56,969 nt of DNA. It comes from a virus (Duplodnaviria > Heunggongvirae > Uroviricota > Caudoviricetes). The stretch's first letter is position 1. Each line of letters begins with the position of its first letter. The notes below the pieces were generated by a model. It was not told the DNA's origin. It made no database searches and was given only the letters and a program-made list of their open reading frames with translations. The position numbers were made by a program, and so were the translations under genes. Of this stretch, positions 52,389 through 52,733 are shown piece by piece. Location of the stretch: IMG/VR virus record IMGVR_UViG_2740892231_000011, positions 1 through 56,969 of that record; one strand, written 5' to 3'.

Positions 52389-52733
52389 GGGCAACTGGAG
52401 CCCGACTGAATGAAGCCATTCAACGGTTTTTCGGCACTCATTCCGGTGTATCTGATCCCACACATCGGGATGAGTGAACGACGAAAACATCACGGTGATT
52501 TCGTCATGCCGCGATAAGAATGTTCCCCTTTGGGCAACTGGAGCCCTCTGTGCAGAAGGTTATCGCGGTCAGGTTGTGATAAAAACGCGCCTCTTTGAGC
52601 AATTGAAGCTCACTGTAAAGCGGCTTATCACAGCAGGCTGTAGCGGGTGCTCATCTCTGGGCAACTGAAGCCCTCTGTACAGAGGCCCGTTACGGCTGAC
52701 CCTGAATGATTTCGCCCCGTGCAATTGAAGCAC
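52389..52733. repeat. array of five 15-bp dyad-symmetric motifs
   Basis: GGGCAACTGGAGCCC (x2), GAGCAATTGAAGCTC, GGGCAACTGAAGCCC, GTGCAATTGAAGCAC at about 52389, 52532, 52597, 52659, 52719. Confidence 0.6.

Follow-up and report, generated by a model that had tools for sequence, protein, structure and literature searches.

What are the five near-palindromic 15-mers that recur downstream of a gene for a PerC-family regulator in this phage-related element, and do they act as DNA or as RNA? A preliminary description made from the sequence alone had offered two options, a regulator-binding array or a set of structured RNA hairpins, and is partly supported by the analysis reported here: the hairpin option is supported and the regulator-array option is not. 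Each dyad is the apical stem-loop of one of five copies of a structured RNA module ~60 nt long. With a probability of roughly 0.6, the array consists of RNAs of the EcOnc36 family that act by base pairing, being antisense to the mRNA of the phage gene gp47 and, in the case of some units, capable of pairing with host mRNAs as well.

The dyad motif and the parts of the array

In the window, that is, the whole 56,969-bp stretch of DNA that was analysed, the pattern GNGCAAYTGRAGCNC has exactly five matches (52389, 52532, 52597, 52659, and 52719), all on the + strand, against an expected count of 0 and without a match in any of 100 dinucleotide-preserving shuffles. This confirms the five copies reported earlier. 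The four sequence variants had been quoted correctly, the second dyad described after two of the copies is real (TCTGTGCAGA in U2 and CTCTGTACAGAG in U4), the gene upstream of the motifs does belong to the PerC family, and the region, which had been called apparently non-coding, contains no long open frame on either strand. The features concerned, with the five units numbered U1 to U5, are the following:

51719–52024, + strand: gene for a ProQ/FinO-domain protein (RNA chaperone family; PF04352, E=5e-19), two genes upstream of the array
52008–52307, + strand: gene for a PerC-family regulator (Pfam PF06069, E=7e-29), immediately upstream of the array
52328–52355, + strand: promoter-like element TTGCTC-16 nt-TATAAT, read from the sequence, ending ~6–8 nt before the base of the U1 hairpin
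52361–52434, + strand: U1, a 74-nt hairpin (model core 52369–52426, apex 52389–52403, T-run 52427–52431)
52435–52478 and 52480–52506, + strand: two hairpins outside the unit family, from the fold
52508–52569, + strand: U2 (apex 52532–52546, 3' internal loop CCCUCUGUGCA; 82 bits with the covariance model)
52573–52634, + strand: U3 (apex 52597–52611; 82 bits)
52636–52697, + strand: U4 (apex 52659–52673, 3' internal loop CCCUCUGUACA; 57 bits, E=7e-14, outside the seed)
52698–52758, + strand: U5 (apex 52719–52733, T-run 52753–52758, terminator-like end of the array)
54094–54492, + strand: gene for a Q antiterminator (PF06530, E=2.5e-50)

The promoter-like element is identical in the O145 and O157 islands and was not reported by a consensus scanner because its -35 part matches at only three of six positions; it is a candidate promoter of U1, which looks like a stand-alone small-RNA gene. 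The two hairpins outside the family are kept in both of these islands, where CC-to-TT changes retain G.U pairing on the + strand. U2 to U5 are fused head to tail with a period of 60–65 nt and end in a second T-run. U2–U4 have neither a promoter nor a T-run of their own and are joined by linkers of only 0–3 nt, so that their release would need read-through of the U1 terminator and processing. No + strand ORF of at least 80 aa occurs within 1.3 kb downstream of the array.

A hairpin architecture conserved beyond sequence

Each dyad forms the apical stem-loop (4 bp with a 7-nt loop, AAYUGRA) of a hairpin of 57–74 nt that is built from an outer stem, a 3-bp middle helix, C/U-rich internal loops and the apex GNGC-AAYUGRA-GCNC. 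The outer stems vary in sequence among the units and their pairing is always kept. Folding, which had been suggested as a check for each unit, gives -191.7 kcal/mol for the array region (z=-8.95 vs. shuffles) and five hairpins of this common architecture at only 52–73% pairwise identity. The statement that there is no unit repeat is therefore wrong at the level of structure: a unit of ~62 nt is repeated, and it escaped the eye because it is conserved in secondary structure and not in sequence. Likewise, the spacing of the dyads is irregular for the first copy only (143 nt), whereas the other four follow at 65, 62, and 60 nt. The invariant loop contains a YUNR U-turn motif.

Covariation was assessed on eight in-register units from islands, Stx phages, Brenneria and Pectobacterium with a hand-specified structure; this set replaced a MAFFT and RNAalifold alignment of 24 units in which the outer stems were misaligned and only 10 pairs were recovered. 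In the eight units 99.3% of cells are paired and both sides have changed in 11 of the 17 pairs, a level reached by none of 500 shuffles, while slid registers give 33–54%. The covariance model matches all five units (82, 82, 57, 30, and 26 bits) and nothing else in the window, the matches to U1 (E=1.7e-5) and U5 (E=1.9e-4), like that to U4, being obtained outside the seed. Strand is also distinguished, with 85 bits on the + orientation vs. 17 on the opposite one, and the + orientation, which has most of the G.U pairs, is the more stable in 18 of 26 units (mean -2.75 kcal/mol, p=0.006). Between islands, 42–52% of changed pairs stay paired vs. 20% expected (99th percentile 40%), and double compensatory substitutions are present. 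No Rfam family is matched by the array at the gathering threshold, the only match in the window being tmRNA, and at permissive E-values nothing better than E=4 is found between 52200 and 53000.

Homologues of the module in phages

The gene for a giant ejection/polyvalent protein (gp47/ECs1242) in Stx phages (Sepvirinae) and in phages of Pectobacterium, Brenneria, and Gallibacterium also contains the module, once or twice and in antisense orientation. The encoded protein is encapsidated and has the domain order LPD5-LPD1-MuF_C-LPD38; the units lie in the coding linker just after MuF_C, and their apex encodes G-L-Q-L-P. All units in phage-type loci are antisense within ORFs of 1,500–2,800 codons, each phage genome has a single locus that is always at the same site (VT2-Sakai has exactly one unit, antisense in the LPD5/LPD38 gene), and a T-run comes after the last unit in all 12 coding contexts (7–9 T in 10 nt vs. 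a background of 2.6). The invariant 15-nt apex is kept from E. coli to Gallibacterium. No conserved coding frame runs through the motifs in the island, whereas in the phage homologues one does so on the opposite strand.

Homology between island and phage starts and stops exactly at the hairpin base, with dissimilar flanks, and the island units are found in non-coding DNA downstream of perC and not antisense within gp47/ECs1242; they are paralogues in a new context rather than the phage locus itself. Among phages the unit can differ where its surroundings are nearly the same: between the Sakai and Shigella 75/02 phages the flanks are 100% and 81–89% identical and the unit 69%. Two sets of candidates were set aside. 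A putative antisense promoter of the phages (TTGCGR-17-TAT(A)TT), conserved in three genera, was not accepted as evidence, since it coincides in part with the conserved peptide (K/N)IL..DIRK and falls within the EcOnc36 interval as published. A scan of genome and viral collections for arrays gave, in distant taxa, mostly coding repeats of the collagen-like GXY type (GGAGCAACTGGAGCA), which were not considered further.

The phage copy in Sakai corresponds to the small RNA EcOnc36

EcOnc36 is a candidate sRNA of the Stx2 prophage Sp5 of E. coli O157:H7 Sakai that was recovered, with a predicted terminator, in five of five Hfq-CRAC datasets (Tree et al., 2014, PMC4104026). Over ECs1242, antisense reads are 5–40 times as numerous as sense reads. 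In the portions of the chimera tables examined, RNase E-CLASH chimeras contain GTTCCCCTTTGGGCAATTGGAGCCCTCTGTGC, and the partners of EcOnc36-type chimeras include the pssA 5'UTR (seven hybrids, replicated, FDR about 0) and the ompC RBS (Waters et al., 2017, PMC5286369). The phage copy of the module is hence an Hfq- and RNase E-associated RNA in Sakai. Its interval begins 46 nt upstream of the hairpin, which means that the hairpin unit is not the whole phage RNA. With the fold, the strong covariation and the more stable, G.U-richer + strand, this detection of a homologue as RNA supports the proposal of structured RNA hairpins.

An EcOnc36-ECs1242 chimera was not seen in those portions of the chimera tables. 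The CRAC and CLASH data come from Sakai, whose yicC-dinD site is without the island, and apices specific to the island were not found in the examined portions of the CRAC/CLASH tables. In the literature searched, EcOnc36 is listed as "target unknown" and is given no structure, family or distribution, and the literal unit sequence has no match. The Pas sRNAs, Esr41, AgvB, AsxR, StxS, and 24B_1, considered as other candidates, map elsewhere or belong to different families.

Each unit matches a different phage allele

The five units have different best matches among the phage alleles of the gp47 site (U1 92%, U2 97%, U3 79%, U4 75%, and U5 77%). U1 and the unit that phage PhiR5_2 carries in its LPD gene are 91–92% identical, T-run included, and U2 is 97–98% identical, exactly hairpin-wide, to the Sakai/933W-type allele that corresponds to EcOnc36. 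The best match of U3 is the AU5/AU6Stx1 type (79% over the unit, 85% over 52 nt), that of U4 the Shigella 75/02 / POCJ13 type (75% over the unit, 92% over a 38-nt core) and that of U5 the Lyz12581Vzw type (77–83%); U3–U5 thus match known phage alleles at only 75–79%. The 5x5 matrices of identity and duplex energy between units and alleles are both diagonal, the units are 75–97% complementary to the gp47 mRNA alleles and the diagonal duplex energies range from -68 to -128 kcal/mol. In the sequences compared, the matching of units to alleles is one to one. It could reflect ancestry alone, each unit having come from a different phage with no present anti-phage function. The 3' internal-loop seeds also differ among units, and pairing with ompC and pssA is predicted for U2 and U4 alone.

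The island and its neighboring genes

The array is located at an operon end and at a mosaic boundary between islands. The island encodes a primase, SSB, the ProQ/FinO and PerC proteins and a Q antiterminator of Stx-phage type, and four E. coli islands share the gene order SSB-ProQ/FinO-PerC-array. Q is 88–91% identical in nucleotides and 88% in protein to Q of Sakai/933W-type Stx phages, and its gene is the only island segment besides the units that is common to Stx phages; between the non-coding DNA of the island and the phage pR'/qut region no similarity was found. In NZ_CP027340.1 the island sits at tRNA-Gly, and in the window it follows a prophage at ssrA. The apex of U1 is damaged in the O157 island. 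Some genomes carry both the island and matching phages, which indicates that its effect is not simply lethal to the phage.

Members of the FinO-domain family bind the terminator hairpins of antisense RNAs and promote their pairing (PMC9977716), and the adjacency of its gene suggests that the island ProQ/FinO protein may be linked to the units. An island with a D5-type primase has units and neither ProQ nor PerC, and two distant ProQ islands (L090 and L091) have no units by the covariance model, the equivalent DNA of L090 being unstructured (z=0.16). A search of viral contigs through relatives of PerC or ProQ found only one and three loci, respectively. An idea of satellite integration (attB) was considered and dropped; the paper on helper-embedded satellites mentions neither the gp47/ECs1242 gene nor its hairpins. 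A packaging site was rejected because compensatory pairing and G.U strand asymmetry are unexpected for a site recognized as dsDNA.

Proposed mechanism and alternative explanations

The island carries a stand-alone U1 (promoter-like element, hairpin and T-run) and the fused U2–U5 with a second terminator, all on the + strand. According to the explanation we prefer, the units would be made as RNA and act through base pairing, each as a near-perfect antisense of one hairpin allele in phage gp47 mRNA. The loop AAYUGRA is complementary to the mRNA loop, so pairing could begin as a loop-loop kiss and spread to a duplex of up to 60 bp, and duplex formation would lower gp47 expression from the matching phage type. 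The C/U-rich internal loops could also pair with the ribosome-binding regions of host mRNAs, a pairing that the published chimeras demonstrate for the U2-type sequence (pssA 5'UTR and ompC). Transcription of the island copies and their action on gp47 mRNA are both probable, and the island ProQ/FinO protein may take part in the mechanism.

A more far-reaching version, which we regard as speculative and rather unlikely, is that the island, as a satellite-like parasite of Stx phages or as a defence element, stores a catalogue of their variants in RNA. Each of its five antisense hairpins would represent a different allele of a site in the ejection-protein mRNA that is hypervariable but constrained in structure; an RNA chaperone (the FinO-domain protein and/or Hfq) would help the units to shut down or tune the ejection protein in any phage type encountered; the phage late operon would be switched on by the Stx-type Q antiterminator that the island has captured; and the phage site would diversify in response by replacement of whole hairpins.

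Other explanations dispense with pairing. The hairpins may be only terminators or insulators that close the SSB-ProQ-PerC operon and, in phages, stop antisense transcription inside the late operon, as could be argued from the T-runs after U1 and U5, the antisense-strand T-run after the last unit in every phage copy and the position of the array at an operon end and inter-island mosaic boundary. We think this improbable, since U2–U4 lack a T-run, an apex of 15 invariant nucleotides from E. coli to Gallibacterium is not needed for termination, the phage copy is an abundant RNA bound by Hfq and RNase E with specific mRNA chimeras, and five hairpins in a row, each tracking a different phage allele, would be unexpected. 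The allele-by-allele match to phage sequences would be left unexplained if the five stem-loops, instead of pairing with other RNAs, served to bind the island ProQ/FinO protein or Hfq, either titrating it as CsrB does CsrA or gaining stability from it. A FinO-domain gene does lie two genes upstream in four E. coli islands, proteins of this family recognize structured hairpins with 3' tails (PMC9977716), a repeated invariant loop would suit a repeated protein site and EcOnc36 is strongly bound by Hfq; yet units occur without a ProQ gene in phages and in the D5-primase island, the ProQ islands L090 and L091 are devoid of them, and FinO-domain binding is thought to be specific for structure and not for loop sequence, all of which makes such a role quite improbable.

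At the DNA level, the units might be cruciform or ssDNA sites of recombination or cassette exchange, or a selfish in-frame palindrome like the Rickettsia RPEs, the array being a pile-up: a 4-bp inverted repeat with a 7-nt spacer resembles the core of a tyrosine-recombinase site, island/phage homology is bounded exactly by the hairpin base, near-identical phage flanks enclose different units (Sakai vs. Shigella 75/02), units are tolerated in frame in the coding linker after MuF_C and the array lies at mosaic boundaries. The G.U strand asymmetry and the T-run conserved on one strand indicate RNA, however, and an RNA has been detected experimentally; moreover, each phage genome has one constant locus and not dispersed copies, copies within one genome are unlike each other, no dedicated recombinase is associated and it is the apex that is conserved, not the base as in integron attC, leaving this explanation a small chance. 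Non-functional debris, i.e., decayed fragments of the phage LPD gene left by recombination, would fit the homology to a phage coding segment and the damaged U1 apex of the O157 island. It is very unlikely given that the island contains nothing of the gene but the hairpin, in five copies that stem from five alleles and have no flanking gene sequence, that a 62-nt period leaves no common reading frame, that 113 of 5,426 complete E. coli genomes retain the array and that inter-island changes, double compensatory ones included, keep pairing at more than twice the chance level. Scarcely credible, lastly, is an operator array for the adjacent PerC-like or another DNA-binding protein, to which five near-palindromic 15-mers adjoining a regulator gene had pointed in the preliminary description. 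What is conserved is the whole hairpin, and compensatory changes reach 20–25 nt to either side of every dyad, which would be superfluous in a double-stranded operator. Every copy has the same orientation, with G.U pairs specific to that strand, and units are found inside phage genes and in the D5-primase island, phages and island alike lacking a PerC gene. Proteins of the PerC family are small activators that are not known to have a palindromic operator.

Implications

Read conservatively, the results describe a well-supported structured RNA family, absent from Rfam, that spans phages of Enterobacterales and Pasteurellaceae. They also suggest that a family of EHEC islands and Shiga-toxin phages are connected by a specific molecular link. 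Expression of the array, if it occurs, would supply EcOnc36, an abundant and ignored sRNA of Stx phages, with a function and a family, and a regulatory RNA could be said to be embedded antisense in a protein linker with codons co-varying to keep the stem; such co-variation is seen at the two ends of G-L-Q-L-P (G/P, V/H, E/L, and R/P). Of the two modules that the island has captured from phages, one is the Q antiterminator and the other the hairpin RNA; each relates to the late operon, from which Shiga toxin is expressed as well. This raises the questions of whether such islands alter the yield, host range or toxin output of Stx phages and whether the pattern of one unit per allele reflects an arms race at the RNA level. 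Should the catalogue version be true, the array would represent a Cas-independent, allele-cataloguing form of RNA-based phage interference or helper exploitation.

Comparison with known systems

Several repeated or hairpin-forming elements invite comparison. The array does not resemble integron attC sites, as the apex and not the base is conserved, the units abut without cassettes and there is no integron integrase in the neighborhood, nor a type III toxin-antitoxin (ToxI-like) array, as the repeats are diverged and the stretch downstream lacks an ORF of the size given above. With the CsrB/RsmZ sponges and the tandem OmrA/B, PrrF1/2 and Qrr RNAs it has in common repeated stem-loops, a conserved loop and tandem paralogues with differing seeds; its loop, in contrast, is not the GGA site of CsrA, and its units derive from phage coding sequence and track phage alleles. 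CRISPR had rightly been set aside, there being no identical repeats between unique spacers, no cas genes and no cas-like ORFs among the neighbors scanned. Both are tandem arrays whose successive units each correspond to a different invader sequence; in the island, however, the whole unit is invader-like without alternation of repeat and spacer (identity 52–73%), and the units are alleles of one phage site and not arbitrary protospacers.

Closer parallels are offered by antisense RNAs. FinP/FinO-traJ of F plasmids and Inc/FopA-repZ likewise involve a short stem-loop RNA that ends in a terminator and has a YUNR loop complementary to the target loop, a FinO-domain gene close by on the same mobile element (here PF04352 at 51719–52024), a 3' U-tail terminator (predicted for U1 and U5; U2–U4 are without tails) and extended complementarity to the target mRNA that includes loop-loop contacts (here of units with gp47 alleles). 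FinP and Inc are each one RNA with one or two stem-loops, cis-antisense to a 5'UTR/RBS of the same replicon, whereas the presumed target of the island units is on a phage and deep inside a coding region, there are five specificities and the phage copy is Hfq-bound. STnc6030 of the Salmonella prophage BTP1 is antisense to a late structural gene and confers superinfection exclusion (PMC12197685). It is similar in that a prophage encodes it, the lysogen expresses it, it targets a late virion gene as an antisense RNA and its specificity is set by base pairing, and it may serve by analogy as a precedent for RNA-based exclusion of related phages; it differs in being a single 786-nt cis-antisense transcript on the phage and not a compact hairpin module or an array on a separate island. 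The nearest relative is EcOnc36 itself. Homology to its module is supported by the 97% identity of U2 to its hairpin core and by the matches of the covariance model to all five units, which have the same architecture, invariant apex and orientation; EcOnc36 is a single copy antisense in a coding gene, whereas the island, a different mobile element, has assembled five diverged copies, four of them in tandem, in non-coding DNA.

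Hairpin units of the array

The degenerate 15-mer GNGCAAYTGRAGCNC has exactly five matches in the 56,969-bp window (52389, 52532, 52597, 52659, and 52719), all on the + strand, and none in 100 dinucleotide-preserving shuffles of it. The preliminary description was right on the positions, sequences and context of these dyads, which lie downstream of a gene of the PerC family (PF06069, E=7e-29) in DNA that had been called apparently non-coding; no long reading frame was found over the array region. RNA folding of 52340-52770 gives -191.7 kcal/mol compared with -135 ± 6 in shuffles (z=-8.95) and bears out the suggestion of structured RNA hairpins, each dyad being only the tip (apex) of one of five longer hairpins of a single design (U1–U5). 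This comprises an outer stem of 10–12 bp, a 3-bp middle helix, a C/U-rich 5' internal loop, a longer 3' internal loop, and a 4-bp apical stem closed by the 7-nt loop AAYUGRA. The second dyad noted for two of the copies is the longer 3' internal loop of U2 and U4. The absence of a unit repeat in the same description does not hold, as U2–U5 recur with a period of 60–65 nt; since the design is shared despite a pairwise identity of 52–73%, what the repeat conserves is structure rather than sequence. Membership tests rejected a CRISPR array, in line with the preliminary description, as well as a ToxI-type array and integron attC sites.

Features of the array and its surroundings (positions in the window)
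40-402: tmRNA gene (ssrA), Rfam 295.8 bits
571 to about 37000: prophage with late-type genes on the minus strand, directly after ssrA
37791-38987, 39178-40443, 41409-42680: three further integrase-size ORFs
From about 46.9 kb: island
47870-50008: DUF927 primase-helicase gene of the island
51719-52024: ProQ/FinO ORF, 101 aa, profile positions 24-108 of 109
52361-52434, + strand: U1 hairpin (RNA fold), T-run after
52508-52569, + strand: U2 hairpin (RNA fold)
52573-52634, + strand: U3 hairpin (RNA fold)
52636-52697, + strand: U4 hairpin (RNA fold)
52698-52754, + strand: U5 hairpin (RNA fold), T-run after
53124-53341: iteron-like repeat block of the island
54094-54492: Q antiterminator gene of the island

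Terminators are predicted behind U1 and U5, and no signals of their own were found for U2–U4. A candidate promoter near U1 (52328-52355) combines TTGCTC and, 16 nt further on, a perfect TATAAT. Two further hairpins between U1 and U2 (52435-52478 and 52480-52506) stand outside the unit family; they are kept in the O145 and O157 islands, and the CC->TT changes in O145 still pair, with G.U on the + strand.

Covariation and strand

Eight units in exact register, from three Escherichia coli islands, three Stx/Shigella phages, Brenneria and Pectobacterium, fit one structure with standard pairs in 99.3% of cells and both sides changed in 11 of 17 pairs, values matched by 0 of 500 column shuffles; sliding the 3' partners by 1–3 columns lowers pairing to 33–54%. 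R1, a covariance model built from these eight units, recovers units outside its seed (U1, E=1.7e-5; U4, E=7e-14; U5, E=1.9e-4), and its scan of the whole window gave no match beyond the units. Between the window and the O145:H28 island, double compensatory changes are seen in U2 (T16T17/A49A50 to CG/CG) and in the U1 apex (GGGC/GCCC to AGGC/GCCT), and across two island pairs 42–52% of changed pairs are still paired vs. 20% for random substitutions (99th percentile 40%).

Of 26 units, 18 fold more stably in the + orientation than as the reverse complement (mean difference -2.75 kcal/mol, Wilcoxon p=0.006). Most G.U pairs fall on the + orientation, which R1 scores at ~85 bits compared with 17 for the opposite strand. 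This asymmetry is the mark of a fold selected in single-stranded form, the simplest candidate being an RNA read from the + strand.

Phage homologues antisense to an ejection-protein gene

A megablast search of 5,426 complete E. coli genomes with the array region found the whole array in 113 and U2 alone, at ~98% identity, in hundreds more. The lone copies lie within, and antisense to, a gene annotated "LPD38/LPD5 domain-containing protein", which is 8.4 kb long and the last of the late operon in Sepvirinae Stx phages (VT2-Sakai orf71, Sakai ECs1242, phi24B gp47). Its product carries LPD5, LPD1, MuF_C and LPD38 domains and is reported in a recent preprint to be an abundant encapsidated ejection protein (10.64898/2026.04.10.717836). 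A single unit is present in the complete VT2-Sakai genome (locus L093, 8633-8694); the phage unit codes for approximately residues 1857–1877, a linker directly after MuF_C. One or two units occupy the equivalent place in giant polyvalent-protein genes of Pectobacterium, Brenneria and Gallibacterium phages or prophages, always antisense and always within ORFs of 1,500–2,800 codons. On the antisense strand, the last unit is followed by a T-run in 12 of 12 coding contexts (7–9 T in 10 nt vs. a strand background of ~2.6).

Read on the coding strand, the apex is GGG CTC CAA TTG CCC (G-L-Q-L-P). Where the apical stem varies, codons 1 and 5 change together, as G/P, V/H (GTG/CAC), E/L (GAG/CTC), and R/P (AGG/CCT), which indicates that the RNA stem is kept while amino acids are sacrificed; outside the apex the encoded peptide is not conserved. 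The apex of the sense mRNA also reads GGG-N6-UUG, a Shine-Dalgarno-like triplet and a possible UUG start in the hairpin loop (VT2-Sakai 8633-8694 and equivalent phage loci), where the variable N-terminal two-thirds of the protein meet the conserved C-terminal third (LPD38), and an internal translation start at this UUG is conceivable. The identical apex, GGGCAATTGGAGCCC, is shared by units in non-coding DNA of two metagenome-assembled genomes from distant phyla (L020, Syntrophorhabdus, 697-810; L007, an Acutalibacteraceae contig, 59-163), which have outer stems and T-runs of their own; these units could reflect true spread or assembly/binning contamination.

The phage copy is the small RNA EcOnc36

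In Sakai the phage unit coincides with EcOnc36, listed for the minus strand of prophage Sp5 (1301433-1301515), found in five of five Hfq-CRAC datasets and with a predicted Rho-independent terminator (Table S2 in Tree et al., 2014, PMC4104026). Placed after correction of a 142-nt offset between genome versions, this interval begins 46 nt upstream of the hairpin and reaches the apex, which puts the 5' end of the phage RNA upstream of the hairpin. ECs1242 ranks 17th among Hfq-bound features, with sense/antisense reads of 1,456/26,613, 1,114/7,138, 3,342/73,833, 820/30,859, and 0/8,465 in five samples (PMC4104026). RNase E-CLASH chimeras of EcOnc36 carry GTTCCCCTTTGGGCAATTGGAGCCCTCTGTGC(AGAAGG), the interior of the unit, and its best-supported partners are the 5'UTR of ECs3452 (pssA; seven unique hybrids, replicated, in both orientations, FDR about 0) and the ompC ribosome-binding site (three hybrids, FDR 7e-163) (Waters et al., 2017, PMC5286369); CCCUCUGUGCA in the 3' internal loop pairs with both. 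On these CRAC and CLASH data, the phage copy is an RNA, on the predicted strand, expressed in lysogens. A candidate phage promoter was discounted as evidence, since it falls inside the transcript and overlaps a conserved peptide.

The island units are paralogues of a catalogued but uncharacterized small RNA, given as "Hfq-CRAC; target unknown" in a 2021 review (PMC7873438); no mention of it was found in the searched literature beyond this review, PMC4104026 and PMC5286369. The units match no Rfam family, and none of Esr41, AgvB, AsxR, StxS, 24B_1, and the Pas sRNAs corresponds to them. In the literature searched, three aspects appear to be undescribed: the family architecture with its covariation; the maintenance of the unit, with codon covariation, antisense in a coding linker of Enterobacterales and Pasteurellaceae phages; and a tandem allele-matched array on a Stx-phage-related island beside a FinO-domain gene.

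The island and its surroundings

In the window, several mobile elements are stacked in tandem at ssrA. On the island, genes for a DUF927 primase-helicase, SSB, a ProQ/FinO-domain protein, PerC, and a Q antiterminator accompany the array and an iteron-like block. In this block AAAAANTGCGCAAAA is repeated at least six times in two clusters and AAATCGATCA three times (53163-53196), both at a spacing of 12 nt, and GCGCAAAACGAAAC occurs twice; the block is probably a replication origin served by the primase-helicase. Four E. coli islands at different chromosomal sites share the order SSB, ProQ/FinO, PerC, array and differ in the DNA 3' of the array; Sakai has no island at yicC-dinD, the site used in O157:H7 ATCC 43889. 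The ProQ/FinO protein is annotated at 138–155 aa in the O157 and O145 islands vs. 101 aa in the window, where it may be N-terminally truncated or have a different start. In L077, a metagenomic island with a D5 primase, two units close the replication operon and neither ProQ nor PerC is present, and no units were found in two more distant ProQ islands. Primase-type islands have thus captured the unit recurrently, and its association with ProQ/FinO is frequent but not obligatory.

Besides the unit, the Q gene is the only island segment in common with Stx phages (88–91% nucleotide and 88% protein identity to the Sakai/933W type). Its product might influence toxin and late-gene expression by acting on pR' in resident Stx prophages; no similarity was found between the non-coding DNA of the island and the phage pR'/qut region.

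Allele matching and its interpretation

Stx-type phages differ in the version (allele) of the unit found at a common site: between phages, identity is 92–95% in the downstream flank and 66% in the unit (59% without the apex). The five island units have their best matches in five different alleles.

Best-matching phage allele of each island unit
U1: PhiR5_2, identity 92%
U2: Sakai/933W type, identity 97%
U3: AU5/AU6Stx1 type, identity 79% (85% over 52 nt)
U4: Shigella 75/02 / POCJ13 type, identity 75% (92% over 38-nt core)
U5: Lyz12581Vzw type, identity 77%

In 5×5 comparisons of the units with these alleles, identity and predicted intermolecular duplex energy each give a cleanly diagonal matrix. 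The homology of U1 with PhiR5_2 takes in the T-run, and a TAT..T hexamer lies 13 nt from the unit in both; in the island this hexamer is the TATAAT of the candidate promoter. Islands coexist with matching or near-matching phages; in the ATCC 43889 island (L095), U2 shares 87% identity with the Sakai-type allele and 90% with that of the AU6Stx1 type. The U1 apex of that island is damaged (GGGCAACTGAGTCCG, ~7075-7125), with U2–U5 intact.

On one reading of this correspondence, the island keeps phage alleles as a catalogue in RNA form and uses it to interfere with Stx phages or to exploit them; this would rank high if true but is considered unlikely. The matching may instead be a record of ancestry and not of present function. 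Island-phage similarity starts and stops exactly at the hairpin base, with flanks lacking homology (window 52508-52569 vs. L002 5001-5062), and between Sakai and Shigella phage 75/02 the flanks are 100% and 81–89% identical and the unit 69%, so that the unit has been replaced specifically; together these imply that single hairpins are moved by some process, with exchange precise to the unit.

Proposed mode of action and relation to known systems

It is very likely that the five copies constitute an array of EcOnc36-family structured RNA modules, and the combined reading, in which such an array acts by base pairing, antisense to gp47, is given a probability of roughly 0.6. The island units would be transcribed from the + strand, U1 from its own promoter and U2–U5 as part of the perC operon or by read-through. 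They may act in either of two plausible ways, or in both. The units could act as antisense RNAs on the gp47 mRNA of the matching phage, to which they are complementary along their full length, the invariant loop AAYUGRA facing the complementary loop of the mRNA hairpin; this loop contains the YUNR U-turn motif, typical of recognition loops in antisense RNA systems. They could also regulate host mRNAs in trans through the C/U-rich internal loops, and such pairing is documented by CLASH for the Sakai allele (PMC5286369). The seed CCCUCUGU occurs only in U2 and U4, with predicted pairing to ompC and pssA at z=-2.3 to -4.2, and no such pairing is predicted for U1, U3, and U5; as they are not conserved across alleles, host-mRNA seeds cannot be the conserved function of the family. 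That antisense control of gp47 is the main function of the array is held only tentatively, as somewhat less probable than the contrary.

Precedents for the antisense mode are FinP/FinO-traJ and Inc/FopA-repZ (PMC9977716). For antisense action on a phage late mRNA, the precedent is STnc6030 of the BTP1 prophage, which excludes superinfecting phage by pairing with such a message (PMC12197685).
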